DNA of 64,000 bases from a virus (IMGVR_UViG_3300018481_000018:67759-131758), one strand, 5' to 3'. Shown: positions 20,426-47,132, counted from the stretch's first letter. Program-made: numbers and translations. Notes: generated from the sequence alone by a model not told the origin.

Positions 20426-20446
20426 TTCTGGACGTTCGTCTGAACT
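20426..20446. promoter_or_regulatory. imperfect palindrome GTTCTGGACG-TT-CGTCTGAAC (operator-like family member)
   Basis: ~26 nt upstream of MoxR start; related to sites at 35145, 44976, 46649, 47119. Confidence 0.4.
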
Positions 20447-20465
20447 GGCAGTTCGTTGGTAGCGG

Positions 20466-21701
20466 TCACTCTTGCCGCATGTGCTTGCGCTCGCGGATCG
20501 TTGCCCGAGCCCGTTTCTGCTGGCTTCGCTGTGCAGCCTCTCGGGCGTAGGCGATGAGGGTATCTTCCTCGCCGGTCAGGGACGCAACGGTTCGCGCCTC
20601 GTCCCACTTCTCGGCGATCTCGCCGTGATTCACCTGGGCGTGACAGTTGACCACGAACGTGCCGGTGGGTAGGTGCATGGTCAGGCTGTGCTGGTAGTCG
20701 AACCCGCTTTGAGTTTCGCCGTCGTGGACACTCTCGATGCTGACGGTGACCCCAGAGGCGTCGCCGCTGAGCAGCGCCTTCTGGAAGTCGTTCTCGGTCT
20801 TGTCGTCGATCACCATGCCGATGCCTCGCAGGCATGTTTGGAGCTCCCTGTAGAGGCGAAGGGCCTCGGTCAGGGTGGGCGTGCCGTCGAGGTAGTCGGT
20901 GAGGTCGGTGGTGAAGCCGCTGTGCATGTTCGTCTCGTACAGCTCCAGGTCCATCCAGGTCGGGTTCTCCGGGTCGCGGAGGTCGGGCACTTGAATGGTC
21001 TCGAAGTCGTCGATGTTGCGCACCTGGTTCAGTAGTCCTTCGACCAGCGCTCGCTCGGAGGTGTACTGGTTACGACCCAGCCAAGCAGCCCAGGTTGCCG
21101 GGTCGTCCCGGACGAACTCGCGTGCCGTGGCTGCCGCCTGGGTGTTCGGTGATACCGAGTTGATCAAGGTGTCGAAGGTGTGGTTCTGCACCCTGTAGGC
21201 AGCTGGGTGCAGCGCCTCCCACGCCCTGATCCCCACCGGCGCGGTGCGAGGAAGCATGACTGCGGTCTCGATCTTGTGCGCGCTGGATCCATTGGGATGG
21301 ACCCGGCCAGCGCTGACTACGACCAGCGCTTCGATCGGCAGCGTGGGATGTTTGAAGCGCCACCACACATTCGTCTTCGTGTGGAAGTTTTGGTCGAGGA
21401 CGTACAGCTCGGCGCGCGTCTCGGCCGGCTTGAAGCCCGCCTCGTCCTCGACCCTCTCCTCGTAGTCGTGCAGGGGCATCCAGATCGACGCCGCGTTCTT
21501 CTCGGCGTATGCCTGGACGGTGCGCATCACGAGTTCGTCCATGTCCTTGGTGAACGCGCTCAGGTCGGTGCCCGCGACGCGAACCTTCCGACCCGAGCCG
21601 GACTGCTCGAGCGCGGGTTCGGCCACGATCGTTCCGTCGGTGAGCAGCCACTGGCGCGACTGCTCAAAGTTGGTTCGTGGGTGCCAGGCTGTCTGCCCCA
21701 T
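20466..21701 (-). CDS. hypothetical protein (411 aa)
   Basis: ORF track; SD CGAGGAGGCTCAGC before ATG 21701. Confidence 0.6.
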   Translation of the reverse strand: MGQTAWHPRTNFEQSRQWLLTDGTIVAEPALEQSGSGRKVRVAGTDLSAFTKDMDELVMRTVQAYAEKNAASIWMPLHDYEERVEDEAGFKPAETRAELYVLDQNFHTKTNVWWRFKHPTLPIEALVVVSAGRVHPNGSSAHKIETAVMLPRTAPVGIRAWEALHPAAYRVQNHTFDTLINSVSPNTQAAATAREFVRDDPATWAAWLGRNQYTSERALVEGLLNQVRNIDDFETIQVPDLRDPENPTWMDLELYETNMHSGFTTDLTDYLDGTPTLTEALRLYRELQTCLRGIGMVIDDKTENDFQKALLSGDASGVTVSIESVHDGETQSGFDYQHSLTMHLPTGTFVVNCHAQVNHGEIAEKWDEARTVASLTGEEDTLIAYAREAAQRSQQKRARATIRERKHMRQE

Positions 21702-22491
21702 GCTGAGCCTCCTCGGGCCTCTTGAGTCGGGTGGTCTTGGCGGGTTGTTCGGCTTGGATCAGTGCGAGCAGGCGGTCGATCGCCTGAGTGGTACCCAGAG
21801 GCTTACTGCCTGCCTTCACGATAGGGATGCGTTCTGACATCCCCCACGGCTCGGCGGAGCCGGCAGTGCGGGCCTGGTTCTCGTACCTCAAGTAGCGTCG
21901 TTCGATCAGTTTCTCGTAGCGCACCCAGTCCTCCAGGATCGTCTCATCGACCACGCGTTCGGAGCGACCGGGCCAGCCCTGGTCGAGGGCGGGCTGGATG
22001 GTCCAGCTGCCGGCGCGCGCCTTGAGTTCGACCCAGCGGTTGGTCTGGGAGTAGGTGCGGCACCCGAGCAGGTCCTCGCTGACGTAGTGGCGGCGATCGT
22101 TCCAGTCCTGCAATCCCCGGTAGCCGATGTACTCCATCGGCTTGTCGGCTATGAGCCACTGGTAGCGGCCGTGCAGGTGGCTCCACTGAAGGAAGGGCAC
22201 GTACTCGGTGATCCTGCTGCGGCGGGTGTAGCCCCACATGGTGTTGAACATGAAGCGCCCGCCCCGAGTCAAGGTGAAGTGGGTACTGAGCCCTCGGTCC
22301 CCCCACTGTTGACCAAGGCCGATGCAGTCATCCGGTGAAGGCGAGGAGTCCTGGTGCTGCCACTCCACGCCCCAGGCGAAGCGCCCGAAGGCGCAGACCT
22401 CGTTGCCCCAGGCATTCAGGACGGCTTCCCACTGGCGGAACAGGGCGATTGCTGGTTGCGCGTCGGGTTGCTCGAACAGAGCATCGTTCAT
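21664..22491 (-). CDS. hypothetical protein (275 aa)
   Basis: ORF track; SD GAAGGAGAAACC before ATG 22491; first gene downstream of repeat element B. Confidence 0.6.
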   Translation of the reverse strand: MNDALFEQPDAQPAIALFRQWEAVLNAWGNEVCAFGRFAWGVEWQHQDSSPSPDDCIGLGQQWGDRGLSTHFTLTRGGRFMFNTMWGYTRRSRITEYVPFLQWSHLHGRYQWLIADKPMEYIGYRGLQDWNDRRHYVSEDLLGCRTYSQTNRWVELKARAGSWTIQPALDQGWPGRSERVVDETILEDWVRYEKLIERRYLRYENQARTAGSAEPWGMSERIPIVKAGSKPLGTTQAIDRLLALIQAEQPAKTTRLKRPEEAQHGADSLAPTNQL

Positions 22492-22504
22492 GGTTTCTCC
22501 TTCG

Positions 22505-22600
22505 ATCCATGGAAACTCCGAATCGACGGGACGATGGAGTTGTCACGCCACGCGAATACCGCCTCACGCATCACGCGTCACGCGGCGTGTGTGCGCCTGG
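22505..22600 (-). repeat. intergenic repeat element B: GGAAACTCCGAATCGACGGGACGATGG core plus 3 tandem TCACGCR heptads
   Basis: Homologous copies at 3965-4050 and 37185-37275; heptads overlap stop codon of gene 22571..22921. Confidence 0.7.
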
Positions 22601-22921
22601 CTTCCACGATGGGTGATAGCCGTTGCGGGCCACGTTGGCGGCCGCGCTCAGGCCCTCCTTGATGCCGGTGAGGATGTTGTGGCTGGCCTGGCTCACGCCT
22701 TCTGGGTCGTAGTCGTTCCATCCTCGGCCCTGGTCGTCGCGCTCGCCCTCGATGTCCTTGGCGATCTGCTCGCGTTGCCTGGCGAGCATGTCCTCGGCGA
22801 ATGCGAGCAGGTCCAGTTCAGCCTCCAGTCCTTCAGTGTCGGCGTAGCGGGTCGCGTCCAGGGTCTTGGCGACTCTCGCCATCACCCAGGGGTCCTTGTG
22901 CAAGTCGCTCGTCATCCCCAC
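22571..22921 (-). CDS. hypothetical protein (116 aa) ending ..TPRDA*
   Basis: ORF track; last codons encoded by the heptad repeat. Confidence 0.5.
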   Translation of the reverse strand: MGMTSDLHKDPWVMARVAKTLDATRYADTEGLEAELDLLAFAEDMLARQREQIAKDIEGERDDQGRGWNDYDPEGVSQASHNILTGIKEGLSAAANVARNGYHPSWKPGAHTPRDA

Positions 22922-24858: not shown

Positions 24859-25262
24859 CAGGTTCCTCCCAGGATGGATTGAATGGCGGCCCGTTCTTCC
24901 TCAGGGTCAACTGGCGGCGGCTTGAGTGGAATCTCGCCGTCCTCCCAGAGGGTGGTGAGGAACTTCATCAGGTCGTACGCCTCCTCCCCTTCGGGAACGG
25001 GGCCGTTCGCGCGCTCCCATTCGGCGATCATGGCTGGGTCGGCTTTCGGAATGTCGAAGGCGCTGGCCCAGGGGACCTCGAAGCAGGTGGTGAACCATTC
25101 CTGCTGGATGTAGACGTCGGGATGATTGCCGATCGCGTCCGCCAGGCCCTTGTTCCACTCTTCGGCAGACGCCTGGGACTTGAAGGCTCCTGTCCAGAGC
25201 GGCTCGGCGGCCTCGACCATCGAGCCACCGCCACTGTGAAGTGCCACGACCCACATACTCAT
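24858..25262 (-). CDS. hypothetical protein (134 aa)
   Basis: ORF track. Confidence 0.55.
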   Translation of the reverse strand: MSMWVVALHSGGGSMVEAAEPLWTGAFKSQASAEEWNKGLADAIGNHPDVYIQQEWFTTCFEVPWASAFDIPKADPAMIAEWERANGPVPEGEEAYDLMKFLTTLWEDGEIPLKPPPVDPEEERAAIQSILGGT

Positions 25263-25480
25263 GGCATGACCTCCCTCAGGACGACACGCTTGCCCTTGAT
25301 GCAGATGCGCTCGCTTTCGAGCTCACCCACTTCACCATCCTTGAGTGCGCAGGCGGTGTTGAAGTCGTCGTGCTGATTCAGGCGCTCGTCCAAACGCTCT
25401 GGGAGCGGCCAGATCGCCCAGGTAACGAACCCGACCAGGCTCAGGTAGACGGCTCCGGCCTTCCAGTTTCGCTCCATCAC
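25259..25480 (-). CDS. hypothetical membrane-associated small protein (73 aa)
   Basis: ORF track; ATGA overlap. Confidence 0.5.
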   Translation of the reverse strand: MMERNWKAGAVYLSLVGFVTWAIWPLPERLDERLNQHDDFNTACALKDGEVGELESERICIKGKRVVLREVMP

Positions 25481-25771: not shown

Positions 25772-26098
25772 TTACACCTCGTTGAGGATGTCGATGCGGG
25801 GGAGGTCGCACTCCTCCGCGAACTCGTCGAGGACCTCGGTGAGCGTCATGTTGTGCTGGCTTGGCAGCGTGAGGATGTGGTCGATGTTGTTCTGAACGTG
25901 CGTCCGAACCTCCTGGAGGAACTGCTCCATCCTGAACTTCTTGAGGTAGCCGGCGTCGGCCGGCAAGGTCGTCACTTCGTCGATCACCAGGTCGTCCGGC
26001 GTCTCGGTGATGTGAACCTGGAACATGACGCCCTCGAACGCACGTTCCTCACTCGTGGCGACATAGCCGTCGACTTGCAGTACATGCTTGGTGTTCAC
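25772..26098 (-). CDS. hypothetical protein (108 aa), coupled to ligase gene
   Basis: GTG 26098..26096 overlaps ligase stop (GTGA), preceded by GGAGG; ORF-track start 26149 would overlap ligase by 55 nt. Confidence 0.5.
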   Translation of the reverse strand: MNTKHVLQVDGYVATSEERAFEGVMFQVHITETPDDLVIDEVTTLPADAGYLKKFRMEQFLQEVRTHVQNNIDHILTLPSQHNMTLTEVLDEFAEECDLPRIDILNEV

Positions 26099-26904
26099 AG
26101 CGCCTCCAGGACCTTCTTGTTCACGTGCCGGAGTTGGCCGGTGGTGCATTCGTGCATCGCCTTGTCGTCCCGCTTGCGCAGGATGGTGGGCTGGTAGAGC
26201 CGCCCGCCGGCACCGGTGTAGAGGTAACGCACCTCGAGCACGTCACCCATGGCGATAGTCCCGCCCTTCTCCTTGCCAATCAGACTGGCGCGGCCCACTG
26301 AGACCACATCCCCGTCCTCGACCAGCCCCAGGTCCACGGAGTCCTTGCCGTCGGTTCGGACGCCCGTCACGATGCAGTCGGCGGTCGAGACGAACTTGAG
26401 CTTGAGCCACTCCTCGGTGCGGCCACCGGATCTGTAGGGCGAGTTCGCCTTCTTGAGCATGAGTCCCTCGAAGCCATCTTGCAGAGCGCGGCTGGCGAGT
26501 TTGATCTTCTCGTCGAGCGTCTTCGCCTGAGGTACCAACTTGAAGTCGTTGGGCACCGAGCCCAGGAAGGTCTCCAAGCCTGCGCGCCGCTGGAAGAGCG
26601 GCTTGTCGGCCCACAGCAGTGTGGGCGTCAGGGGCATGTCGAACACCCAGAAGACGTCTCCCACGAGCTCGCCGTCCAGCGCCCACTCCCCTGCCGGGAA
26701 GCGGAAGTCGATCACGCTGCGCGGCAACTTCTTGGAGTAGATCGAGCCGTTGCGGGTGATGGCGTTGCCGGGCATGTCCATGCCGGGCGACATCAGCAGG
26801 ATGCGGTTGCCGTCCAACTTCTGCTCCATGACCCAGGAGTCGTCCTTGATGAATGCTTCGAGCGAGGTCACCTCGGCCGACTTGGCCAGTTGGGGGTACA
26901 ACAT
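26095..26904 (-). CDS. ATP-dependent DNA ligase (minimal, ~269 aa)
   Basis: Adenylation motif I EQKLDGNR; further nucleotidyltransferase motifs (FDxP, EGLMLK, KLK); ATG 26904..26902 overlaps upstream stop; ORF-track N-terminal 118 aa extension is junk. Confidence 0.8.
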   Translation of the reverse strand: MLYPQLAKSAEVTSLEAFIKDDSWVMEQKLDGNRILLMSPGMDMPGNAITRNGSIYSKKLPRSVIDFRFPAGEWALDGELVGDVFWVFDMPLTPTLLWADKPLFQRRAGLETFLGSVPNDFKLVPQAKTLDEKIKLASRALQDGFEGLMLKKANSPYRSGGRTEEWLKLKFVSTADCIVTGVRTDGKDSVDLGLVEDGDVVSVGRASLIGKEKGGTIAMGDVLEVRYLYTGAGGRLYQPTILRKRDDKAMHECTTGQLRHVNKKVLEAL

Positions 26905-27122
26905 CACTTCACCTCCAAGGTGATGATCGGGTCGAACTCGAAGAATCCGACGATGAGGCCGAATCCGTAGATGAGGAAGAAGAAGACGGCCACCGTGAAC
27001 ACGCCAGCGAACAACGCAGGCAGCCAGCCGGGGCCGATCTCGCCCATCCCTGTCACCAGGACCATCCACCAACAGCCAGCTGCGATGAACGGGGCCAGGA
27101 TGAACAGCAGCGACAGCATCAC
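26904..27122 (-). CDS. small integral membrane protein (72 aa, 2-3 TM)
   Basis: ORF track; highly hydrophobic; ATGA overlaps both sides. Confidence 0.5.
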   Translation of the reverse strand: MMLSLLFILAPFIAAGCWWMVLVTGMGEIGPGWLPALFAGVFTVAVFFFLIYGFGLIVGFFEFDPIITLEVK

Positions 27123-27355
27123 TTGCTCCTGACGGGAAACTTCTCGATGTGCCAGAAGTCGCTGTAGTCACTCCGCTGGAGGTTCGCGCTCGCCCAGGAG
27201 GAGCCATCCTCCTGGAGGTACCAGCGCTTGACTTCTGGGCGTGACGCTTTGGCGACATCCGCGTCGACGAATACCTGCTCCACCTCGCTCCCCTCGTAGG
27301 GGAAGACGTGGGTGAGGACGAACACCTCCTCGACGGCTAGCTTCGGCCTAGGCAT
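27119..27355 (-). CDS. hypothetical protein (78 aa)
   Basis: ORF track; coupled between Ku and membrane protein. Confidence 0.5.
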   Translation of the reverse strand: MPRPKLAVEEVFVLTHVFPYEGSEVEQVFVDADVAKASRPEVKRWYLQEDGSSWASANLQRSDYSDFWHIEKFPVRSK

Positions 27356-28203
27356 CAGACGGCCTCACGCTCCGCCTTGGCGGCCTCCACGGACGCCGAG
27401 AGCATGGCCAGGAGGTCCGGTGCGGCAGCGGGGGCCGCAGCGACCACGCGCTCGCCCTCGGCGGGCTTGCCGAAGTCGCCGGCACTGGCCTTCTCGTCGG
27501 CGAACGTCTGGATCAGGGCGGTTCGCTCGTCGGTGAAGTCCAGTGGCTGGTCCTCCCACACGGTCTTGATGAGCGTGCCCATCATGGCGACCTCGGCGTC
27601 GACGACCTCGGTCTCCGGGAACTCGCGCTGCTCACGAACAGCGTCGGTGTGGTGCACGAGCCACAGTCGCCCGTCGGGCATCAGGACGCAGGGCTTCGGC
27701 TTGCCTCGCGTGGTGAGCTCGCAGACCGCCATCGCGTTCTGCTCGCGCATCGCCTTGAACAGCGTCGCCATGAGCTTGGTTGCCACCGGGTCCGGCTTGC
27801 CCTTGGCCTTGCCTGAGTCGCCCTTGCGCGGCTCGGTGTAGAGCAGGCCGGAGGGGACGAAGTGACCCTGGTGGAAGTTGTGCTGCGGCTCGAACTCCCG
27901 GACGACCAGGGTGTCGGGCTGGAGCGTGAACAGTTGCTCGATCTCGTGGTCCTCCACGTAGACCGGGCCGTACTCGGTGTCGATCTTCTTGATGACCTCT
28001 GCGCCGGGTTCGAGCAGCTCGCCCGTTTCCTTGTTGGTCAGGCCGCGACCCACGGGAGCCTCGCCGTCGTCGGTGACGACGAACTGCTTGCGCGTGATGC
28101 CGTGGTCGGACACGGTGCCGGTGTAGAGGGTGATCGGGATGTTGACGAGGTTGAACGAGAGGTTGACCTTGTTCAGCGAGCGACCGCTGGGCTGTGCCTT
28201 CAT
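27355..28203 (-). CDS. ku: Ku-like DNA end-binding protein (non-homologous end-joining)
   Basis: N-terminus LSFNLVNIPITLYTGT matches bacterial Ku core (cf. ISFGLVNIPVKLY); 282 aa; C-terminal Ala/Lys tail. Confidence 0.8.
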   Translation of the reverse strand: MKAQPSGRSLNKVNLSFNLVNIPITLYTGTVSDHGITRKQFVVTDDGEAPVGRGLTNKETGELLEPGAEVIKKIDTEYGPVYVEDHEIEQLFTLQPDTLVVREFEPQHNFHQGHFVPSGLLYTEPRKGDSGKAKGKPDPVATKLMATLFKAMREQNAMAVCELTTRGKPKPCVLMPDGRLWLVHHTDAVREQREFPETEVVDAEVAMMGTLIKTVWEDQPLDFTDERTALIQTFADEKASAGDFGKPAEGERVVAAAPAAAPDLLAMLSASVEAAKAEREAV

Positions 28204-29604: not shown

Positions 29605-30084
29605 CTATCCCTTCACTGGGACGACCTTGAGGCCGGCCTCGGTGGTGACGACTTTCTCCTTGAGCTTCTTGGCGCGCTTGCGCCAGTTGTCGTCGCGCCG
29701 CAGGTCGTCCAGAATGATGCCGATCCACACCACGTCGACCAGGATGTCGACGCTGTTCTGTAGGCCGGGCCCACCGAACACGGTGAGCGCAAGGTCTGCG
29801 ATGAACACCAGCAACATGGGCACGCGGGCCACGTTCAGCAGGCGCGTGGACCGCACGACCAGGTTCACCCAGAAGCTGGCGGTTAGCGTGATCTTCTCCG
29901 CACTCTTCTTGGACAGGCGTTTGAAATACCACTGAGGCGCGTGCGGCCACGCGAAGATGAACGAGTCATCCTCGAACTTGATCGTTGGCATGAAGATCCG
30001 CGCAATGATCCGGACCGCCCAGGTGAGGGTGAACCAGATGATGAGGAGGTTCAGGGCGATCTCTATGGCGATCATCGTTTCCAC
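29605..30084 (-). CDS. integral membrane protein (159 aa)
   Basis: ORF track; several hydrophobic helices. Confidence 0.55.
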   Translation of the reverse strand: METMIAIEIALNLLIIWFTLTWAVRIIARIFMPTIKFEDDSFIFAWPHAPQWYFKRLSKKSAEKITLTASFWVNLVVRSTRLLNVARVPMLLVFIADLALTVFGGPGLQNSVDILVDVVWIGIILDDLRRDDNWRKRAKKLKEKVVTTEAGLKVVPVKG

Positions 30085-34723: not shown

Positions 34724-34724
34724 G

Positions 34725-36231: not shown

Positions 36232-36238
36232 GTGATGC

Positions 36239-36679: not shown

Positions 36680-36680
36680 G

Positions 36681-37109: not shown

Positions 37110-37184
37110 GATGGTGGCCTCCTGTGGCCTCGTGTGGACACGCTGCACGGGATCGTGCGGCGTGGGGGATTCTTCTTCGGTTCC

Positions 37185-39029: not shown

Positions 39030-39050
39030 GCGGCCTCCTTGGGCCTGTGT

Positions 39051-39401
39051 TCAGTGGTTCAGGTAGTCGATGTACGAGTCGTCGAGTGAGTGCTCACCGG
39101 AGCCTGAGTAGTAGTAGCCGTCGTCCGGGTCGGGCGGTGCCTCACCGTAGGCCTGGGCCATGGCGAGCGTGTCACGCTCGATGTCCTCGTCGGTCTCGTC
39201 GGGGCAGTACCCATCCTGCATGTAGTGCTTGGTCGAGCCGCACCGACACGCGCGACCCTGGAGCTCGGCGAGCCGGTCCAGGCAGGCGGTGCAGTTGACG
39301 TTGGTCGAGCAGTCCCGGACCAGGTTGTCCTTGTCCGGAGTTGCGCCACACAGCGTGGCCTGCACGTCGTTGGTCTTGAGGTCGAACAGGTGGCGCGTCA
39401 T
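39051..39401 (-). CDS. hypothetical Cys-rich acidic protein (116 aa)
   Basis: ATG 39401 (MTRHLFDLKTND..); codons upstream to the ORF-track GTG 39467 have low GC3. Confidence 0.5.
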   Translation of the reverse strand: MTRHLFDLKTNDVQATLCGATPDKDNLVRDCSTNVNCTACLDRLAELQGRACRCGSTKHYMQDGYCPDETDEDIERDTLAMAQAYGEAPPDPDDGYYYSGSGEHSLDDSYIDYLNH

Positions 39402-39489
39402 GGCCGACGCTCGCGGGTGTACTCCGGCAGGCCCAGGAACTCGCCGGTTGGCGTCATGAACCACCACCAGAATGCTTTCAATGCGCGCT

Positions 39490-39660
39490 TCATGAGGAGA
39501 TCCTTCCTTCGGGGTCGCACCCCACGTAGATCTTGTCGCCGATCCAGCCAGCGACGTAGCCCTCGGGCAGGTCGAAGGTGGGCCGGAAGTTGGCTGGGTC
39601 GAACGGGACGTCGTAGCGGTTGCACAGGTCGTGCAATGCCTTCTGTTGGGCCTCGGTCAT
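39490..39660 (-). CDS. hypothetical small protein (56 aa)
   Basis: ATG 39660 overlaps upstream stop (ATGA); ORF-track 123-aa N-terminal extension junk. Confidence 0.4.
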   Translation of the reverse strand: MTEAQQKALHDLCNRYDVPFDPANFRPTFDLPEGYVAGWIGDKIYVGCDPEGRISS

Positions 39661-39899
39661 GGTCGCTCCTTGTGGTGGATGGCGTTGTGCTCCCTGCGTA
39701 GCTCGAAGCACACCACGCAGGGGTTGAACACCTGGCTGATGGGCGTGGGCCCGGATCTGATGACCTTGGGGACGCCGCAGAAGGCGGTCACCGTGTCGCC
39801 GATCCCCACGTCTGGCAAGCACGTGGCGCACGCGCCGTGTACTGGTGCGTGCGCCGACGTGGTGGATTGCTCTACGCGCTCCTCGGTTGCTGTCGTCAC
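39657..39899 (-). CDS. hypothetical Cys-rich protein (80 aa)
   Basis: ORF track; ATGA overlaps both sides. Confidence 0.45.
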   Translation of the reverse strand: MTTATEERVEQSTTSAHAPVHGACATCLPDVGIGDTVTAFCGVPKVIRSGPTPISQVFNPCVVCFELRREHNAIHHKERP

Positions 39900-40339
39900 T
39901 TCTGCGACTCCTTCCAGGCGAGGAACTCGGCGAGATCCTCCTCCTTGACGTCGTGCTGGGCCAGGGTGTTGGCCAGCCTGATCTTGTCCTGGACGTAGCC
40001 GCCACCGGGCTGCCGGCGCTTGTACTCACTCGCCAGGAACTCGTTGATGCGGCGGCCGAGCAGGGAGTTGCGGTCCTTGTCGCCTCGGATGCCCTTGTAC
40101 TGCTCGAACAGGTGGTTGTACGGAGCCTTGCGGCTCTTGGGGCTCAGGTCCTGGAAGTGCTCGACCATCTCTGGGGTGAACACGATCTCGGACACCGGCA
40201 TCTTGTGCGGGTCGACGCCCTCAGGTGCCCACGGCACGATGCTGGGCTGCCTGGTGACCGGACGGACCAGTGCGGGTGCGTCCGGGTTCAGGCCGGCGGC
40301 CAGCAGGGTCTCGCGGCGCTGGGCTTCGGTCTTGGGCAT
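39896..40339 (-). CDS. hypothetical protein (147 aa)
   Basis: ORF track; SD CACAAGGAGGCAA. Confidence 0.55.
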   Translation of the reverse strand: MPKTEAQRRETLLAAGLNPDAPALVRPVTRQPSIVPWAPEGVDPHKMPVSEIVFTPEMVEHFQDLSPKSRKAPYNHLFEQYKGIRGDKDRNSLLGRRINEFLASEYKRRQPGGGYVQDKIRLANTLAQHDVKEEDLAEFLAWKESQK

Positions 40340-40379
40340 GGTTGTTGCCTCCTTGTGCTGGTTTGAACGGGTGTCTGGA

Positions 40380-40736
40380 TCAGTTGCCGGTGACGAGCAT
40401 GAGCAAGAGCGCGCCCATCATCAGCGAGCCGAACAGGATCGCTCCGAGGTCGAAGTCGTTGCTGTCGGTCACCTTGCGTCGCAGGCCGTTGTGGATCACG
40501 GATGCCGTGTCGATGAGCAGGTAGACCGCCAGCGTGACGTACTGCCAGGAGAGGTGATCCGCGCCGGTGACCAGCAGCGCCATCTGCGCCACGTTCCAGA
40601 GCGTCATCACCACGATCGTGACGGGCCCGCGCCTGAAGGGACGGGTGGTGAGCCAGATGCCGATGAACAGATCCAAGACCAGCCAGACGAACAGCACCTG
40701 GTGCTGCCAGGACATGTCGGTGTAGAGCTCGTACAT
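40380..40736 (-). CDS. integral membrane protein (118 aa)
   Basis: ATG 40736 (MYELYTDMSWQHQVLFVWLVL..) preceded by CCCAAGGAGGCCACC. Confidence 0.5.
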   Translation of the reverse strand: MYELYTDMSWQHQVLFVWLVLDLFIGIWLTTRPFRRGPVTIVVMTLWNVAQMALLVTGADHLSWQYVTLAVYLLIDTASVIHNGLRRKVTDSNDFDLGAILFGSLMMGALLLMLVTGN

Positions 40737-40770
40737 AGGTGGCCTCCTTGGGCCTCGGTGTTGCGGGTGG

Positions 40771-40986
40771 TCAGCGCCGGTCGTCCTGAGTAGGAGCCAG
40801 TCGGTCGGTCTCGTCGTGAATGACGACACCTGGGGTCTCGCGGAGCGCGTCGCCGTGCTCCTTGGCGTGGTGGGCGCAGAACCGAAGTTCTCCACCCGTG
40901 GGCAAGGTGGCGAGCAGGTACGCCTGCGCTCCACAGCGGTCACAGCGGTCGATGGCGGTCAGGGACTGTGCGGCCTGGACGGTCAT
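40771..40986 (-). CDS. hypothetical protein with CDRCG..C..HH (71 aa)
   Basis: ATG 40986 preceded by AGAGGAGGAGTC. Confidence 0.5.
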   Translation of the reverse strand: MTVQAAQSLTAIDRCDRCGAQAYLLATLPTGGELRFCAHHAKEHGDALRETPGVVIHDETDRLAPTQDDRR

Positions 40987-41026
40987 GACTCCTCCTCTGT
41001 TGAGTTGTTCATCGGTTACTGCTGGG

Positions 41027-41638
41027 TCAGGTTGTGCTGACGGGGTGCAGGGCGGCGACGTTGGGGTCGTCGTCACACGTCTTGCAGATCGGCCGACCGG
41101 GGTTGTCGTCGTTGATGTGACCACCCTCAGCGCACTCATCGGGGTTGTCCCAGGTGATCGCTCGCACGCTCACGTCGGAGTCGCCGATGATCCGGTTGAG
41201 TAGGTCCTCGCCGTACCCCGTGGCCTGCGCGACAGCTTCACTGGCGGCCGTCTTGCAGATCTCCTCGATACTGGCCGAGTGGTGCTCGTTCAGGTCCACG
41301 GTGAAGGTGACCAGTTGGATGCCGAAGAAGGAGACGAAGGAACCGGTCACGTGGTACGCGGTGATGGCACCGGACTCGACGGCAGCGCCTAGCACGGCGT
41401 CCATGAACTCCTTGCCGTGGGTGTCGCCGAACACCTGGTACTCAGCGACCAGGCGCAGCGGCACGGTGTCGGTGGTGGTCTCGGTCATGGTGGTCCTCGT
41501 TTCCTGTGCGTTGAGTTGTGCGTTGAGTGCGGCCTGGCAGGTGGGGCAGTACCACCGTCCATGGATCGTCGGCGCGGTGGTGCCACCCTCCTCCCAAACC
41601 AGCGGGGTGAAGTGGATGCTGCATGCGTCAGGCTTCAT
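41027..41638 (-). CDS. hypothetical protein (203 aa; alt start 41488)
   Basis: ORF track; ATGA overlap with upstream gene supports 41638. Confidence 0.5.
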   Translation of the reverse strand: MKPDACSIHFTPLVWEEGGTTAPTIHGRWYCPTCQAALNAQLNAQETRTTMTETTTDTVPLRLVAEYQVFGDTHGKEFMDAVLGAAVESGAITAYHVTGSFVSFFGIQLVTFTVDLNEHHSASIEEICKTAASEAVAQATGYGEDLLNRIIGDSDVSVRAITWDNPDECAEGGHINDDNPGRPICKTCDDDPNVAALHPVSTT

Positions 41639-41907
41639 GACAACCTCGCTGCGAGACTTCTGAGCAGGCGCTCGATGGGCTCACGCTGCTGGTTGTTGTC
41701 GAGGGTGATCCGGTACTCGACCTTGGTCATCACCCGCTTGGTGAACCAGCCGCGTTGGCCGATCACCTTCTCGTTGAGCGCGGTGACGGAGACTGCACTG
41801 TCGGGGCATCCCTCCTGCACTCGATCGGCCATGTAGCGCAGCGACCGCATGAATCCGTCGACCTCATCGGCGTAGCCCCACACGCGGCCGGTGATCACCC
41901 CGGTCAC
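41635..41907 (-). CDS. hypothetical protein (90 aa)
   Basis: ORF track. Confidence 0.5.
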   Translation of the reverse strand: MTGVITGRVWGYADEVDGFMRSLRYMADRVQEGCPDSAVSVTALNEKVIGQRGWFTKRVMTKVEYRITLDNNQQREPIERLLRSLAARLS

Positions 41908-42947
41908 ACCACACCGACCCTGACCAGGTGCTCGAGCGCCTCGTCGTAGGTCTTGCCGGTCACCTTGGCGAACGCTTCGACCTTGGCAACCTTGGCCTTG
42001 GCGTCAGGCTCGACCACAGCCACCAGGCGCTCCTGCTCGGGGGCGTCCTTGAACAGCCGCTTGTGGAGCTTGCGCACCTCGGCGTAGGTGACGTCGGGAC
42101 TGAGCAGCGTCTCGCCCAGCGAGTGCAGCACCTTGTTGTACGGGCTGCGCTCGTCGCGTGACACGGCCTCGTCCAGGTTGACCTCGGTGAAGTCCAGGGC
42201 GGGCACCTTCTTGCCGTTGACGGCGAACCCTCCCATCCACTTCTTGTGCAGGCTCTGCTCGGCGCGGTCAGCCTTCAACTGCGCCTTGTCGCGGGCCTCA
42301 CGCTCGGCCTTCTCGCGGATAGCCTGCTCCCTGCGCTCGGCCAGCGCAAGAGCCTCCTCGGCCTCCATCAGGTCACGCGCCTTGCCGGCCGCCTCGGCCA
42401 ACTCGGCGTTGGTGAAGTTGCTCAGGTTGAGCACGGGCTCCTCCTTCCACTCGGGCTTCTCGACACGGGCGTCGTGAATCACGATGCCCTGCTTGCCGTT
42501 GGTGCGTACCAGGGCACACGCCTGGCACACGGCGGTCCTAGGCATGGCGGTCAGGATCGCCAGATCCACGCCCTCGGGTGCGATCTCCACCATGAGCGGG
42601 CTCTGGCAGTCCGCGCAGTTGGTCTCGATCCAGCCCTCGCTGCGCAGGTCGATCTCCACGCCGTTGATCACGGTCACGGGCATGTCGGCCAGGCTCGGTT
42701 CGGGCTCGGCCCTGACTCCGGTGTGGGTCTGCTCGGAGTGGCTGCACGCGCACAGCTTGAAGCCGTCCTGGACTGTGCCGGAGGGCAGGAAGCCTTCGCA
42801 CTCAGCCTTGCAGCGCACTGCGCCACACGCCTTGCCGAGAATGGCCTTGGGCTGGGGTGTCACGTCGACACCAGCCTTCAGGTTGGTCTTCACGCGCTCG
42901 AGCGCCTCGATCTGCTCAGGTGAGAGCAGGTTGTTGATGTCGGTCAT
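41904..42947 (-). CDS. hypothetical protein, Cys-rich N-half plus Ala/Glu/Arg coiled-coil (347 aa)
   Basis: ATG 42947 (MTDINNLLSPEQ..) preceded by GGAAGGATAGACGC and overlapping upstream stop. Confidence 0.6.
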   Translation of the reverse strand: MTDINNLLSPEQIEALERVKTNLKAGVDVTPQPKAILGKACGAVRCKAECEGFLPSGTVQDGFKLCACSHSEQTHTGVRAEPEPSLADMPVTVINGVEIDLRSEGWIETNCADCQSPLMVEIAPEGVDLAILTAMPRTAVCQACALVRTNGKQGIVIHDARVEKPEWKEEPVLNLSNFTNAELAEAAGKARDLMEAEEALALAERREQAIREKAEREARDKAQLKADRAEQSLHKKWMGGFAVNGKKVPALDFTEVNLDEAVSRDERSPYNKVLHSLGETLLSPDVTYAEVRKLHKRLFKDAPEQERLVAVVEPDAKAKVAKVEAFAKVTGKTYDEALEHLVRVGVV

Positions 42948-43138
42948 GCGTCTATCCTTCCGTGGTTCTCGACCCCGTGCTCGGAGTCGATCTTGTGGTG
43001 CTCGCGCACGATGGCGCGCTTGAGCAGGGGCCAGATCAGCCCCAGGAACAGCAGGTCGACGAGGATCATGAAGGTCACCTCGGCGGCCATGTGGGCAGGG
43101 TCGGCGACGATGTGCCACCACGCGGCCAGGAAGTCCAT
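42944..43138 (-). CDS. small membrane protein (64 aa)
   Basis: ORF track; TM FMILVDLLFLGLIWPLL. Confidence 0.45.
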   Translation of the reverse strand: MDFLAAWWHIVADPAHMAAEVTFMILVDLLFLGLIWPLLKRAIVREHHKIDSEHGVENHGRIDA

Positions 43139-43260
43139 CAGGGCAGCGCCTTCCCGATCACGTAGACCAGGAGGACCATCCCTCCCACGTAGGCCAGGGC
43201 GGCCACGGCGTAGAGCGTGGCCCCGGTCTTGGACAGCTGGCGCGCTCTGTGCTTGCTCAT
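43138..43260 (-). CDS. small membrane peptide (40 aa)
   Basis: ATG 43260 preceded by GGAGGCATCGG and overlapping upstream stop (ATGA); MSKHRARQLSKTGATLYAVAALAYVGGMVLLVYVIGKALP. Confidence 0.35.
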   Translation of the reverse strand: MSKHRARQLSKTGATLYAVAALAYVGGMVLLVYVIGKALP

Positions 43261-43442
43261 CCGATGCCTCCGAACTTCTCGTAGGGGCTGGGCTCGGCCG
43301 GCTCGGCGACGGCCGGCGGCTTGGCGCGCAGCGTGAAGGGTGGGCGCTCCACCTTGGCTCGGCGGTCGGCTCGCACCTGAGCGATCAGGCGGCGTTGGGT
43401 CCTGGCAGCCTTGACTGCCTTGGCGCGTTCGGTGGGTGTCAT
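43257..43442 (-). CDS. small basic protein (61 aa)
   Basis: ATG 43442 (MTPTERAKAVKAAR..) shares a base with upstream stop. Confidence 0.45.
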   Translation of the reverse strand: MTPTERAKAVKAARTQRRLIAQVRADRRAKVERPPFTLRAKPPAVAEPAEPSPYEKFGGIG

Positions 43443-44413
43443 CACATGCTCCTCGATGTGAAGGGGTTGGGGCCTGGGCGGTTGCTCAGGCTGGTGGTAG
43501 GCCGGTTGCCCGGTCGTGGTGTTGGGCGTGGTGCCCGTTTCGGCACGGGCAGGAAGGGGTTGCGGCCGGGCCTCGGGCCCATGCCTGCATCCGGTACGGG
43601 GATGGGCTCGGGACGTGGAGCCTTGGCGCGCTGGCCCTCCTGCAAGAGCAGCATCCGCAGCGTGTTGCCGGGTGCGCGGTCCTCGCGCTCGCCGTACTTG
43701 GCCACGATCCACTCGCGGCCGAGCATCACAGCCTCAGCCACGGGCCTGGCCACCCAGGACTGGTGGGTCTTGACGTACTCGCCCGCCAGGCGCAGCACCT
43801 CGACGACGTGCTTGGACTCGACGCACAGGTCCTCAGCCAGTTGCCACACCCGGACGTAGTTGCCCTCGCGCAGCGGCTCGGGGCGCACCGGGTTCGGGCC
43901 CTCGATCACCCACGCGTCACCCAGGGCGTCGAAGAACTCGCTGGTGGGCGTGGCGAGCCAGTGGCGGTCGAACTCGTCCTCGGGCCAGTCCTCCTGTTCG
44001 GGCTCCTCGTACTGCTCGCAGTCCAGCCGGAAGGGAGAGCAGTCGTGGTGGTCGGAGCAGGAGTACTCGGGCTCGCCGTTGAGCAACTCGCGCTCCCAGT
44101 CGGCCAGCGGCTCCCACTCGGGCTCGCTCTGGACCGGCTCGGACCAGCCCAGGAGTTCGCGCTCCCAGTCAGCCAGGGGCTCTTCGTAGCGCTCGTCGGG
44201 CTCGGGCTGACGCTTCCACCAGTCGATCTGCCCGGCGGCGCTCAGGCCGTCGCCCACCATGCGCTCGGGCTCGGGCTCGGCGAGGCTCTCGACGATGGCC
44301 TGGCGCTTGGTCAGGCCATCGGGCTTGCGCCCGCACCAGTAGCACCCCTGGCAGCCGTCGCTGCGGCCGGCACGGTGTGTGCCCTTGATGCGAGGGTGAT
44401 CGGTGTTGCTCAT
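43442..44413 (-). CDS. hypothetical protein with internal duplicated PLADWERELL segment (323 aa)
   Basis: ATG 44413 (MSNTDHPRIKG..) preceded by GAAGGGAGATGCACA. Confidence 0.6.
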   Translation of the reverse strand: MSNTDHPRIKGTHRAGRSDGCQGCYWCGRKPDGLTKRQAIVESLAEPEPERMVGDGLSAAGQIDWWKRQPEPDERYEEPLADWERELLGWSEPVQSEPEWEPLADWERELLNGEPEYSCSDHHDCSPFRLDCEQYEEPEQEDWPEDEFDRHWLATPTSEFFDALGDAWVIEGPNPVRPEPLREGNYVRVWQLAEDLCVESKHVVEVLRLAGEYVKTHQSWVARPVAEAVMLGREWIVAKYGEREDRAPGNTLRMLLLQEGQRAKAPRPEPIPVPDAGMGPRPGRNPFLPVPKRAPRPTPRPGNRPTTSLSNRPGPNPFTSRSM

Positions 44414-44548
44414 TGTGCATCTCCCTTCGGAGTGTCTGCTCGGGCTGAGCAGGCCGAGCCAACGCACAAGCGCCCGCACCCGGACAGGTGAGGGTTTGCC
44501 TCACCCACCCAGGGGTCACGCTTGTGCGCTGGACAGCCCGCTAGCGGG

Positions 44549-44944
44549 CTAGGAGAGGACCAGGACGTGGTGGACGTGCGCCCACGCCACCTGGGCCTCG
44601 TGGTACTTGGAGCCGTAGACCGGGCTCTCGAGCCTGCCGGTGTGCGGCTGGACGACGATGCCCTCCTCGGTCGGGAAGTGGCCGGTGCGCGCCTGGATGG
44701 AGCCGCGCGTCAGTCGCTGGTCGATCGTGGGCAGCGCCTTGGCCTCGACCAGGACTGTGGCCTCGTCCCCGATGAACACGGCGAAGTCACCCGTCTCGTC
44801 GTAGTAGTCCGGCACCCGGAACACCGTGATGTCGGGCTGGATGGCGCTGGCTGGCTTCCTGCGCGGCTTGCGCACTCGGGCCGGCGCGTCAGGGTCGACG
44901 ACGGCGAGCAGGTTCTCGGTCATCTGGCTCTGGGTGGTGGTCAT
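44549..44944 (-). CDS. hypothetical protein (131 aa)
   Basis: ORF track; SD CCCCAAGGAGGCAGCC. Confidence 0.6.
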   Translation of the reverse strand: MTTTQSQMTENLLAVVDPDAPARVRKPRRKPASAIQPDITVFRVPDYYDETGDFAVFIGDEATVLVEAKALPTIDQRLTRGSIQARTGHFPTEEGIVVQPHTGRLESPVYGSKYHEAQVAWAHVHHVLVLS

Positions 44945-44975
44945 GGCTGCCTCCTTGGGGCATCGGTGTTGCGTG

Positions 44976-44999
44976 TGACTTCGGACGGGCGTCTGAAGT
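44976..44999. promoter_or_regulatory. imperfect palindrome GACTTCGGACG-GG-CGTCTGAAGTC (operator-like)
   Basis: 32 nt upstream of ATG 44944; one mismatch between arms. Confidence 0.5.
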
Positions 45000-45129
45000 C
45001 AGTTGTGCGGGTTGCGCTTGTCGTGCACCGCGATCGCCACGATGGCGAGTGCGGCCACGACCAGCAGGAACAGGCCGGTGGGCGAGAGCACGAGTGCCGC
45101 GATGGCCTCGCGTGCGGTCGGCTCGTCCA
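44998..45129 (-). CDS. small membrane peptide (43 aa)
   Basis: ATG 45129 adjacent to upstream stop; MDEPTAREAIAALVLSPTGLFLLVVAALAIVAIAVHDKRNPHN; high GC3. Confidence 0.35.
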
Positions 45130-45429
45130 TCAGGCACCGAAGTCGTCGAAGCTCAGGGCCGCGTAGGTCCTGCGCAGTCGGACGTGGAGCATCCGCATGG
45201 TCAGGCTCTGGGGCCTGCGCTGCGGGTTGCGGGCCAGGATGCGCTTGACCACGGCCTGACTCACGGGCCTACCGCCCGCGTCCTCGCTGTGGAAGATCAC
45301 CTGAGCCCGGATCGGGTCAGGGTGGGTGAGCAGCAGCCGCGCCTCCTCGTCGAGCATGGGCGTGTCGCCCCAACTGCGCCGGTCGAAGTTGGGGCTGATC
45401 GGGTCCAGGCTGTCGTCGTACTCGCTCAT
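45130..45429 (-). CDS. hypothetical protein (99 aa)
   Basis: ATG 45429 (MSEYDDSLDPI..) adjacent to upstream stop. Confidence 0.5.
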   Translation of the reverse strand: MSEYDDSLDPISPNFDRRSWGDTPMLDEEARLLLTHPDPIRAQVIFHSEDAGGRPVSQAVVKRILARNPQRRPQSLTMRMLHVRLRRTYAALSFDDFGA

Positions 45430-45430
45430 G

Positions 45431-45781
45431 TCAGTAGCCCATCTGCTCGGCGTAGTGGTCACGCTGGCTGCGCGCCTCGGTGTCGCACTCGTCGCGGCAG
45501 AACGTCGCCTCGACTGCGCGGTTGCCCTCGTCGGTCACCTCGTGCCAGGACAGGCGCGAGGTGTCGTCGTCGGCGAAGTAGGTCACGTTCAGCGTGGCCC
45601 CGGCGAGCGGCACGAAGGACACCACCGAGGCGAGCACGCGGTTCTTGAAGGCGTGCTCGCTGTGCTGGTCCTCGGGCGAGACCTGCTCGCCTCCGGGCTC
45701 CTGCGCCATGACCCAGGACCTGTCCAGCGGCCCGTCGCAGTCGATCGAGCGGCTCTCCAGGTGTGCGTGCAGTGCGCTCAT
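45431..45781 (-). CDS. hypothetical protein (116 aa)
   Basis: ATG 45781 (MSALHAHLESRS..) preceded by GAAAGGAGGTGCGCG. Confidence 0.55.
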   Translation of the reverse strand: MSALHAHLESRSIDCDGPLDRSWVMAQEPGGEQVSPEDQHSEHAFKNRVLASVVSFVPLAGATLNVTYFADDDTSRLSWHEVTDEGNRAVEATFCRDECDTEARSQRDHYAEQMGY

Positions 45782-45823
45782 CGCGCACCTCCTTTCGTCA
45801 GGGTTGACGGTCAACCCAAGGCC

Positions 45824-45852
45824 GGGGGCCAGCGCCCGAAACGCTGGCCCCC
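45824..45852 (-). terminator. 11-bp perfect stem hairpin GGGGGCCAGCG(cccgaaa)CGCTGGCCCCC
   Basis: 32 nt downstream of stop of gene 45886..46503; adjacent palindrome GGGTTGACGGTCAACCC at 45801-45817. Confidence 0.5.
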
Positions 45853-45885
45853 ACCCTGCTGCGACCGTCAGGCCGTCAGGGTTGC

Positions 45886-46503
45886 TCAGACCTGCGCGGC
45901 CACGGCCGCGTCGATCTCGTGGCGGTCGAACTTGCCGGTCTCGGCGAGCGACTCGCGCAGCGCCCACTCCGAGCGCGGCGTGATCCGGCCCATCGCGTCA
46001 CGCGGGCCGTCGGCCGGGCGCACCTTGGCCGGCGCGTTGGCGTCAACCTTGGCGACCTGGCGGGTGCCCTTGCGACCCTTGGCCTTCGAGCCCTTCTTGG
46101 CGCTCGACTTCTTGGCCTTGGCGGCCGACTTGGTGCCCACGCTGGGCGTGCCGAACTCGCCGGTCAGGACCTTGGTCTTGCGGCCCTCGCCGATGGCCCA
46201 CGGGCCCGTGAGCTCCTGCTCGCCCGCCACGACCGCCTCGGCGATCGCGTTGACCGACAGGCCCTGCGCCCACTTGTGGGTGCGCTTGAACGCGGCCTGG
46301 TTCTTGCGGGTCAGGTACCGGACCTCGCCCTTGGGCGCGGCCTTGGTGCCCTTGGCCTTGGTGCTGGCCTTCGAGCCCGCCTTGGAGCCCTTCTTGGCCG
46401 TGTTGGGCACGTTGCCCTCCAGGGCCGACAGCAGCGCGGTGATCTGCTCGCCGAGGGTCTCGACGGACTGCTCGAGCACGCTGATGCGGGTGTTGTTCGT
46501 CAT
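45886..46503 (-). CDS. lysine/alanine-rich histone H1-like DNA-binding protein (205 aa)
   Basis: Repeated AKKGSKA/KAKG tracts; ORF track. Confidence 0.55.
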   Translation of the reverse strand: MTNNTRISVLEQSVETLGEQITALLSALEGNVPNTAKKGSKAGSKASTKAKGTKAAPKGEVRYLTRKNQAAFKRTHKWAQGLSVNAIAEAVVAGEQELTGPWAIGEGRKTKVLTGEFGTPSVGTKSAAKAKKSSAKKGSKAKGRKGTRQVAKVDANAPAKVRPADGPRDAMGRITPRSEWALRESLAETGKFDRHEIDAAVAAQV

Positions 46504-46648
46504 GACATGACCTCCTGGGTCGGTTGCGTGCCTGGACTTCCCAGGTCACGCGCCTGCGGCATCGCATGACCGCCGTCGAATCGGCGGCCCGCTGTGCGCC
46601 CACAGGCTGGATGTGCGTCTATGTGCAGACGACACGCCCACCGAGCCG

Positions 46649-46670
46649 CTTCAAACGGGCGTCTGAAGCG
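46649..46670. promoter_or_regulatory. imperfect palindrome CTTCAAACG-GG-CGTCTGAAG (operator-like)
   Basis: Intergenic 46504-46685; family consensus. Confidence 0.45.
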
Positions 46671-46685
46671 GTCGGAAGGGGTGTG

Positions 46686-47066
46686 TCAGGCGGGGGTGCC
46701 CTGGATGTAGCACCCGTAGTTGCTGTTGTGCGCCACGACCCTGCGGCCGTGCTCGTTGGCGTAGACCTTGCAACCGAAGGCGCACTCGCTCATGGCGACC
46801 TCGCCCCAGGTGCCCTCGGGCAGGGGCTCGGTCACGCCGATCTCCACAGGGCGGCCCTCCATGAGCGCCTGCTCGGTGGGGGACATCTGGCGCTCCAGCA
46901 CGTGGCTCAGGCGCACGGTGGTGTCCACGCCGTCCTCCAGGGCCGCCTGAGCGGGGGTCCGGGAGAAGCGGTGCTTGCGCGTCTGGGGCACGTGCACCTT
47001 GGCCGGCGCGATCGGGGTCACCTCGGCGAGCAGGTGCTTGGGCAGGGTGGTGGTGGTGTCCTGCAT
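46686..47066 (-). CDS. hypothetical protein (126 aa)
   Basis: ORF track; SD GCCCAAGGAGGCAACCCC. Confidence 0.6.
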   Translation of the reverse strand: MQDTTTTLPKHLLAEVTPIAPAKVHVPQTRKHRFSRTPAQAALEDGVDTTVRLSHVLERQMSPTEQALMEGRPVEIGVTEPLPEGTWGEVAMSECAFGCKVYANEHGRRVVAHNSNYGCYIQGTPA

Positions 47067-47118
47067 GGGGTTGCCTCCTTGGGCATCTGCACATAGGGGC
47101 TTTCCCTAGGTGCGGTTC

Positions 47119-47132
47119 TGGACGGGCGTCCA
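47119..47132. promoter_or_regulatory. perfect palindrome TGGACG-GG-CGTCCA (operator-like)
   Basis: 53 nt upstream of ATG 47066. Confidence 0.5.

Follow-up and report, generated by a model that had tools for sequence, protein, structure and literature searches.

Cluster O mycobacteriophages (Corndog and its relatives) carry a 17-bp dyad repeat, 5'-TGTTCGGNNNCCGAACA, in 34 copies within about 70 kb (PMC4351075). In Corndog, 14 of these copies are intergenic, 10 lie near the 5' ends of genes and 10 are intragenic, and most of them occur in a leftward array of non-structural genes (PMC4351075). The repeat shows no link to predicted SigA promoters and is thought to be bound by a dimeric protein; its function is unexplained (PMC4351075). 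Here we describe an 18-bp palindrome that is dispersed within and between the genes of a 64,000-nt stretch of viral DNA (IMGVR_UViG_3300018481_000018:67759-131758; this whole stretch is called the window in the following), and for which the Cluster O repeat appears to be the closest described analogue.

A second class of dispersed sites is found in Cluster A mycobacteriophages. The stoperators bound by the L5/Bxb1 immunity repressors occur in about 20-35 dispersed copies at a density of roughly one per 2 kb; most occupy short gaps close to start or stop codons inside long operons, and they demonstrably block elongating RNA polymerase (PMC9283540, PMC6550527). They are 13-bp, asymmetric, orientation-dependent elements that are bound by a monomeric two-domain repressor (PMC9283540, PMC6550527).

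The consensus of the palindrome in the window is T-T/c-C/T-n-G-A-C-G-n-n-C-G-T-C-n-G/A-A/g-A, or TTYnGACGnnCGTCnRAA in short form, with an 8-2-8 geometry and an information content of 18.6 bits in a matrix refined on the window and its relatives. The element is strongly over-represented: 29 copies score at least 14 bits with this position weight matrix, against 0.4 expected. A symmetrised matrix made from five initially noted sites alone returns 20 matches of at least 15 bits (0.05 expected), and the word TTCNGACGNNCGTCNGAA with up to two mismatches is matched 12 times, compared to 0.39 times in dinucleotide shuffles. The position matrix shows symmetry and no significant difference between the strands; positions 4/15 and 9/10 are unconstrained, and position 5 of the half-site is G at a frequency of 0.86 and A at 0.13. 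Copies are spaced fairly evenly, about one per 2-3 kb, across coding and non-coding DNA and across the early, replication and structural regions, and further copies lie in the adjacent structural region beyond the window. The sites of the window are listed below; being symmetric they carry no strand, + and - refer to the genes unless a sequence is given, and labels beginning with L denote other loci.

133-150: site TTTGAACGCGTGTCTGAA, intergenic, 21 nt upstream of the - strand ATG 111; 21.9 bits
1728-1745: site within gene 1483-1776(-), 31 nt past its start; 23.2 bits
3969-3986: intergenic site, 22 nt upstream of ATG 3946; 20.9 bits
4854-4871: site 8 nt past the start of gene 4517-4879(-); 17.7 bits
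9192-9209: site within gene 8810-9304(-), with an orthologous copy in L118; 22.8 bits
12314-12331: site within gene 11820-12353(-), 22 nt past its start; 15.2 bits
14231-14248: site at the 3' end of gene 14208-14789(-), 22 nt upstream of ATG 14208, with an orthologous copy in L115; 18.6 bits
18745-18762: site within gene 18323-19141(-); 21.6 bits
20427-20444: site TCTGGACGTTCGTCTGAA (+ strand), 26 nt upstream of the MoxR ATG 20400; 21.7 bits
25377-25394: site within gene 25259-25477(-), orthologous in L115 and L116; 18.4 bits
25891-25908: site within gene 25772-26098(-); 20.3 bits
26355-26372: site within the ATP-dependent ligase gene, orthologous in L115; 16.9 bits
28225-28242: site 21 nt upstream of the Ku gene ATG 28203; 16.1 bits
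29908-29925: site within gene 29605-30075(-); 15.6 bits
33048-33065: site within gene 32975-33310(-), 69 nt upstream of the following start; 14.7 bits
35144-35161: site TTCTGACGGGCGTCAGAA (+ strand), a perfect 8+2+8 palindrome, 29 nt upstream of ATG 35114; 20.8 bits
38624-38641: site within the 469-aa gene 37620-39029(-); 22.3 bits
40362-40379: site filling a 40-nt gap, 22 nt upstream of ATG 40339; 19.4 bits
44980-44997: site TTCGGACGGGCGTCTGAA (+ strand), the top scorer with 24.4 bits, 35 nt upstream of ATG 44944
46650-46667: site TTCAAACGGGCGTCTGAA (+ strand), 146 nt upstream of a Lys/Ala-rich 205-aa gene; 22.4 bits
47117-47134: site TCTGGACGGGCGTCCATA (+ strand), 50 nt upstream of ATG 47066; 21.0 bits
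48703-48720: site in a 705-nt non-coding gap, 249 nt upstream of ATG 48453; 17.9 bits
49096-49113: site in the same 705-nt gap; 21.7 bits
49147-49164: site overlapping the stop of gene 49159-49521(-); 18.9 bits
51472-51489: site within the + strand gene 51276-51671; 18.0 bits
54189-54206: site upstream of the + strand phosphatase gene; 15.9 bits
56216-56233: site within the + strand gene 56037-56672; 16.2 bits
57887-57904: site at the 3' end of gene 57375-57947(+), 47 nt upstream of the following start, orthologous in L399, L400 and L401; 17.1 bits
59684-59701: site 21 nt upstream of the probable start (59723) of a WhiG/FliA-type sigma gene; 19.6 bits
62678-62695: weak relative with one good half-site; 10.4 bits

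Several features of this family recall the Cluster O repeat. Both are short palindromes with tens of copies per genome (29 in 64 kb here), both are divided among intergenic gaps, gene 5' ends and gene interiors, both are concentrated in a long leftward array of non-structural genes, and both phage groups encode Ku. The two elements differ in sequence and geometry, 7-3-7 for TGTTCGGNNNCCGAACA versus 8-2-8 here, and the Cluster O arms are invariant whereas the half-sites in the window are degenerate. The genome families are also unrelated, as a phage database returned neither a nucleotide nor a MoxR match.

A sequence-only reading of the window had listed five such sites, 25-150 nt before the start codons of five minus-strand operons, and had taken them for the operators of a regulon under a dimeric helix-turn-helix (HTH) regulator. 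All five exist, displaced by 1-4 nt, and lie 26, 29, 35, 146 and 50 nt from the start codon (sites 20427, 35144, 44980, 46650 and 47117, respectively). The GG spacer ascribed to them is present on the + strand in four of the five, whereas site 20427 has TT at its centre. Two supposed weak relatives fared differently: the one near 49085 is a strong site (49096-49113), and the one near 62690 is weak indeed. These five sites belong to a family of about 29 copies, since the listing had missed 24 further sites of at least 14 bits, 15 of them intragenic. The idea of a dimeric regulator agrees with the symmetric dyad, the independent degeneration of its half-sites and its orthologous conservation; the restriction to five operons does not agree with about 29 copies, half of which are inside genes.

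How the copies distribute between coding and non-coding DNA bears on the same question. In the window 15 of 29 copies are intragenic, and the other 14, which are not fully within a gene, occupy the 15-18% of the sequence that is non-coding. Density in coding DNA is thus about 5-6-fold lower than in intergenic DNA; the similar density that the sequence-only reading had named as evidence against its regulon is not observed. Yet 50 coding copies were observed versus 0.7 in codon-order shuffles, and from this roughly 70-fold excess we conclude that the coding copies are not a by-product of codon usage and that the family goes beyond what a classical promoter-operator regulon would describe.

The palindrome is conserved across the clade to which the window belongs. 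The window and 11 related loci, with MoxR identities down to about 50%, together hold 75 sites in 220 kb, and every related locus examined has copies; unrelated loci that were fetched by the same search contain 2 matches of at least 15 bits in 915 kb. Refinement of the matrix on these loci is partly circular, but the unrefined seed matrix alone already gave 48 sites. Individual copies are also maintained. The site upstream of MoxR is kept in the window, L115 (in degenerate form), L116, L120 and L122 while its flanks diverge, and the site that ends 21 nt before the start of the sigma factor gene is present in the window, L400 and L402. Several intragenic copies are likewise orthologous among relatives. 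In IMG/VR, neither the palindrome nor another, oriented repeat (motif B, described below) was matched other than by single chance occurrences and in one relative, L001; the MoxR protein gave no match in a scan of IMG/VR. A homologue search with the 126-aa protein encoded at 46686-47066 returned only two relatives.

Palindromes in transcribed DNA could be selected as RNA hairpins, which in a polycistronic mRNA might act as processing sites, 5' stabilisers or translational operators. A few copies do form strong hairpins (44980, 46650 and 35144), the first two reaching -12 kcal/mol with z about -4, and in two cases complementary but non-conserved flanks lengthen the stem: site 44980 is extended by tgac/gtca and site 46650 by ccgc/gcgg. 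The position of palindromes beside ribosome-binding sites would also suit such a role. The family as a whole behaves otherwise. Over the 75 sites just 58% of nine arm positions form Watson-Crick pairs, pairs 3-16 and 4-15 are complementary in only 22 sites, and G.U combinations on the sense strand (72) are not in excess over A.C (95). Folding gives mean z values of -0.3 to -0.5, close to shuffles, with minimum free energies between -0.5 and -3 kcal/mol for many copies; in most copies the hairpin is not a stable one. An Rfam search of the window found tRNAs only and no family at the palindromes. What is conserved is therefore the primary sequence rather than the pairing, and the palindrome is not an RNA hairpin as a family, which makes the RNA reading a most improbable one. 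Since the arms drift separately around the consensus, as expected for half-sites contacted by protein on duplex DNA and not for a selected stem, the pattern points to the target of a dimeric protein on double-stranded DNA. At copies 44980, 46650 and 35144, RNA or cruciform structure may contribute.

The sites are positionally biased with respect to genes. Among the 75 sites 26 are intergenic, 6 fall within 40 nt after a start (8-37 nt past the start codon) and the rest are intragenic; for 24 sites a start codon follows at a distance of 14-61 nt, most often 21-30 nt. The window contains 11 sites located 21-50 nt upstream of a start codon, and six of them (133, 3969, 14231, 28225, 40362 and 59684) are at exactly 21-22 nt. 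Along the long co-directional arrays, where they recur about every 2 kb, the palindromes favour the minimal stretch that separates a stop codon from the following ribosome-binding site, and several gaps consist of hardly more than stop codon, palindrome, Shine-Dalgarno sequence and ATG. Our interpretation is that the palindrome abuts, but stays out of, the roughly 20-nt ribosome footprint upstream of the start. The flanks show no conservation within 40 nt on either side of the sites. Two of the genes preceded by a site recur in the argument below:

59723-60523, + strand: WhiG/FliA-family sigma factor (NCBIfam WhiG model, E 2e-76)
L398 3468-5090, about 4-6 kb right of the window, - strand in that locus: 540-aa terminase large-subunit-like protein (weak match to PHROG 5909, E 7.5e-5)

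For the sigma gene, an ATG at 59693 in the centre of site 59684-59701 was dropped as the start codon; it is absent in the L400 orthologue, and the conserved start is the downstream MEQVKLEP. The sigma-proximal site is preceded at 58 nt by a hairpin, cccgac-ggtt-gtcggg (59626-59643), whose counterpart in the alignment with L400 is a full site, TTCCGACGGTCGTCGGAA; the hairpin is probably a decayed second copy of the palindrome. The ATG of the terminase-like gene is preceded at 13 nt by a perfect palindrome, ATCAGACGCCCGTCTGAT, with no Shine-Dalgarno sequence visible there.

The tight spacing of 21-22 nt to start codons raises the question as to whether the sites are phage-specific internal promoters, dependent on an activator or an alternative holoenzyme, with transcription starting just downstream and leaders of about 15-20 nt that carry only a Shine-Dalgarno sequence. 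The phage encodes its own WhiG/FliA-type sigma factor, sites 35144 and 47117 follow GC-rich hairpins, so that the gene downstream would need re-initiation, and upstream of MoxR, where other genomes have the palindrome, L117 has the oriented, promoter-like motif B. The architecture of sigma-28 promoters is TAAA-N15-GCCGATAA. The palindrome fits neither this architecture nor that of sigma-70 promoters; it is fully symmetric with no oriented element in its flanks, many copies are mid-gene at hundreds of nucleotides from any start, and six sit just past a start codon. A scan of 34000-52000 for sigma-70-type promoters (-35/-10 hexamers at 16-18-nt spacing) found none, and a scan for intrinsic terminators found terminator-like hairpins at shuffle level. 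On these two scans we rejected sigma-70 promoter and intrinsic terminator as identities of the element, and we regard a phage-specific promoter as unlikely.

We favour a role in blocking transcription because most copies are in transcribed DNA (between cistrons, flanking start codons, in gene interiors, and 13 and 21 nt upstream of the terminase and sigma starts, respectively) and not upstream of recognisable promoters. In this proposal, which we consider evenly balanced between right and wrong, the 18-bp dyad would be bound by a homodimeric, sequence-specific protein that is probably encoded by the approximately 144-kb tailed phage itself. Each monomer would read one half-site, TTYnGAC(G), and the half-site centres, about 11 bp apart, would lie on the same face of the helix. 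Occupancy by the dimer would block or modulate transcription through or into the downstream gene, and the targets would include the phage WhiG-like sigma gene, the MoxR-vWA block, Ku and the terminase. Both the binding and the repression or roadblock that would follow from it we infer from the pattern of sites.

Such a system would be a symmetric counterpart of the stoperators and of dispersed operators. The palindromes share with stoperators the density and the placement at gene boundaries inside operons; they differ from the 13-bp element of single orientation in that an 18-bp palindrome implies a dimer. Another actinophage, phiC31, has a c repressor that binds conserved inverted repeats (CIRs), which are multiple, about 17 bp long and scattered in intergenic regions. 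Going by this description, both cases have many inverted repeats of one actinophage bound by one repressor; the CIRs, again by description and not by sequence, are intergenic, associated with promoters or terminators, and far fewer per kilobase.

Which protein could bind these sites? The sequence-only reading had suggested small basic proteins of the window, and neither candidate fits: the product of 30614-30799 matches no HTH family in Pfam, PHROGs or NCBIfam, and that of 48124-48453 is a coiled coil followed by a Lys/Ala-rich stretch with no family match. Searches with the same three collections found no HTH family in the 114 proteins of the window or in ten further small open reading frames (ORFs). 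Gene 57375-57947 had been considered as a ribbon-helix-helix protein from its N-terminal pattern; this was unsupported, as Pfam gave no match, the AlphaFold model (mean pLDDT 70) has a low-confidence N-terminus with no strand, and Foldseek found no match in the PDB.

A 91-aa winged-helix gene lies about 1.6 kb past the right edge of the window (L398 7433-7708), adjoining RusA. Its top Pfam family is LexA_DNA_bind, with a score of 20.6 bits, below the cut-off of 23.7 that the L400 orthologue passes with 24.9 bits; GntR and IclR score only slightly lower. A PDB profile search gave weak winged-helix matches including LexA, with E >= 0.1. Orthologues with 42-85% identity adjoin RusA in L399, L400, L401 and L402, so that synteny holds in five genomes, and all of them share an invariant ATMHS(W/Y)L motif at the expected recognition helix. 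The candidate lacks an S24 autopeptidase domain.

The LexA (SOS/Cheo) box of Actinobacteria and other Gram-positive bacteria is TCGAAC-N4-GTTCGA, with an invariant GAAC core. Read from position 2, the palindrome is TCGgAC-N4-GTcCGA, which has the same 16-bp core and 4-nt spacer and matches this consensus at five of six positions per half-site, and the sole recognisable DNA-binding candidate has a domain that, by a weak match, is of the LexA winged-helix type. Against this likeness, the GAAC core is replaced by GGAC, AGAC or TGAC, and the copy number and intragenic spread differ from an SOS regulon. With up to one mismatch allowed there is no canonical LexA box in the window, and since the GAAC-N4-GTTC core is also lacking we rejected the palindrome as a canonical LexA box. 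Domain type, sequence resemblance and co-occurrence are the reasons for which we infer that the 91-aa protein is the binder of the palindrome.

A regulator of the host, such as LexA with altered specificity or a dimer of NarL/DosR type, would be another source of binding. The single-base difference per half-site from the actinobacterial LexA box could be taken in this sense, as could the lack of a recognisable HTH among the window proteins. The DosR box contains a GAC-N4-GTC core, which is also the core of the palindrome. However, the window has no LexA box in canonical form, position 5 is G in 86% of half-sites, the motif is unchanged among relatives down to about 50% MoxR identity, which we assume to have differing hosts, and a conserved winged-helix candidate is encoded by the phage. 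We therefore hold a host regulator to be very unlikely.

Several points weigh against the proposed phage-encoded roadblock. A simple operator regulon would not usually have half of its sites inside genes, and a roadblock does not require a constant spacing of 21-22 nt to start codons; this spacing could reflect a promoter with a fixed short leader or merely the 5' edge of the ribosome-binding region. The 91-aa candidate is located outside the window and its LexA-like assignment is weak (PDB profile E >= 0.1). Finally, the authors who described the Cluster O repeat judged a transcriptional role unlikely (PMC4351075). Their doubt also counts in favour of a bound protein with a non-transcriptional task, such as genome compaction or organisation, replication, recombination, or the marking of module boundaries as recombination hot spots, as does the finding that copies of the Cluster O repeat have recombined to give indels (PMC4351075). 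The high and fairly even density of the palindrome over coding and non-coding DNA and over genome regions agrees with such a task. The 5-6-fold intergenic enrichment, the precise placement relative to start codons and the conserved placement at the sigma gene do not, and we consider a non-transcriptional function decidedly unlikely.

Judged by sequence, the palindrome lacks the defining features of the Cluster O repeat, the stoperator and the LexA box while it shares their architecture, and by analogy a dispersed palindromic element of this kind is already known in other actinobacterial phages. It thus adds an independent and deeply conserved case, from an uncultured family of phages of about 140 kb, to the Cluster O-type repeats that have been described and not explained. 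It also offers testable handles in the fixed placement at 21-22 nt, the conserved copy before the sigma gene and a single winged-helix candidate whose domain type fits a LexA-box-like site. If binding and roadblocking are true, site and protein would make a compact orthogonal transcriptional switch for high-GC hosts. A more specific and speculative version, to which we give little credence, is that this uncultured actinophage lineage places a stand-alone protein with a LexA DNA-binding domain and no autopeptidase on at least about 60 symmetric sites throughout its genome of about 144 kb, that its operator is one base off the host SOS box, and that the dimer acts as a 'stoperator' which gates the WhiG-like sigma factor and with it the early/late timing. 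This would be the first functional explanation for dispersed palindromes of the Cluster O type.

The window has a G+C content of 64%, and its genes are nearly all on the - strand from 1 to about 50.2 kb, with mixed strands beyond. Recognisable products are MoxR, a vWA protein, Ku, an ATP-dependent ligase, a WGR protein, an SPFH protein, a phosphatase, a MazG-like pyrophosphatase and the WhiG/FliA-family sigma factor. RusA and the weak terminase large-subunit match are located in the 9.3 kb that follow the right edge of the window. The source is a large tailed phage, presumably of a high-G+C actinobacterial host; the sigma factor may hint, speculatively, at a sporulating or motile actinomycete, and we base the host on the composition, the WhiG-type sigma factor and the clade member P0112 (about 55% MoxR identity), which is named 'MAG: Nonomuraea sp.' at NCBI.

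A nucleotide search of the window against phage and plasmid collections gave no match, and a tblastn search with MoxR against the same collections gave distant matches only. MoxR homologues delimit an uncultured clade whose longest contigs cluster at 133-148 kb; the window's own contig has 144,413 bp, and one relative is an IMG/VR viral genome with a primase-helicase. A profile scan with MoxR of the 185,579 representative genomes in GTDB found the clade absent save for one misbinned 3.6-kb fragment, and therefore GTDB provides neither a prophage copy nor an inference of the host. Parts of the clade may be temperate. A distant relative (L399 4716-6445) has a tyrosine integrase, an HTH_17 excisionase-like gene and an Lsr2-type DNA-binding protein.

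Two gene sets are conserved in the clade: the block 15983-20400, consisting of MoxR (RavA-like), a 272-aa gene and vWA (ViaA-like), and the set 26095-28203 with Ku, the ATP-dependent ligase of the non-homologous end-joining type and the WGR-domain protein. Orthologues of the sigma factor occur in L399-L402, some with an HTH_17/MerR-like gene ahead. An HNH endonuclease ORF, 2586-3062(-), with an HTH-like C-terminal tail (HNH_3, E 3e-5) lies in a gap of the gene array, and a second HNH is found right of the window (L398 2763-3122). The tRNA genes form one cluster:

51954-52233, + strand: three tRNA genes, Arg-CCT, Trp-CCA and Ser-CGA

The proteins encoded at 45886-46503 and 48124-48453 resemble paralogues, in which Lys/Ala-rich basic tracts come after an N-terminal coiled coil; the first is the one called histone-like in the sequence-only reading, and the second is a shorter copy. 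Their genes have a very high G+C content at third codon positions, long structured leaders and no family match. An N-terminal peptide, hLLAxxxPxAPAxV(R/H)xP, at residues of about 10-30, is common to the otherwise unrelated products of 39896-40339, 44549-44944 and 46686-47066, and is present in weaker form in 34725-35114. The first three genes are each directly downstream of a strong palindrome. The shared peptide could be a common targeting or interaction tag.

Other repeats are separate from the palindrome. Motif B is an oriented repeat of the form (C)AATCCGAACA(T/A)(T/A), found at the following positions:

10722, 17798, 24396, 48644, 53268 and 53283, - strand: motif B
50409, 51859, 53763, 58699, 61911 and 62704, + strand: motif B

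Three copies have CACCCAC-GCGAAAT / CCGATTTT about 20 nt further on. The good copies are all intergenic and oriented towards downstream genes, including the tRNA cluster, and for this reason motif B is likely a phage promoter element. In L117 and L119 a palindromic site follows motif B at a distance of about 26 nt. One arm of the Cluster O repeat is identical to the core of motif B, CCGAACA.

Motif C, GCGTGACA-N17-ATT(T)CGGAGT, occurs in three gaps, 3947-4516, 22492-22570 and 37110-37254. The copy at about 3990-4030 (GTGACA-N17-ATTCGGAG) immediately precedes site 3969-3986, which would put this palindrome at about +1 if motif C were a promoter. The elements TATGTGCA(GA) / TGCACATA and CCATGCACACA are repeated in 46504-46685, 47067-47169 and 47667-48123 and at 49120 and 62700. 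These repeats lie in the long non-coding regions that head the leftward gene array, where the gaps 47667-48123 and 48454-49158 are unusually long for this genome.

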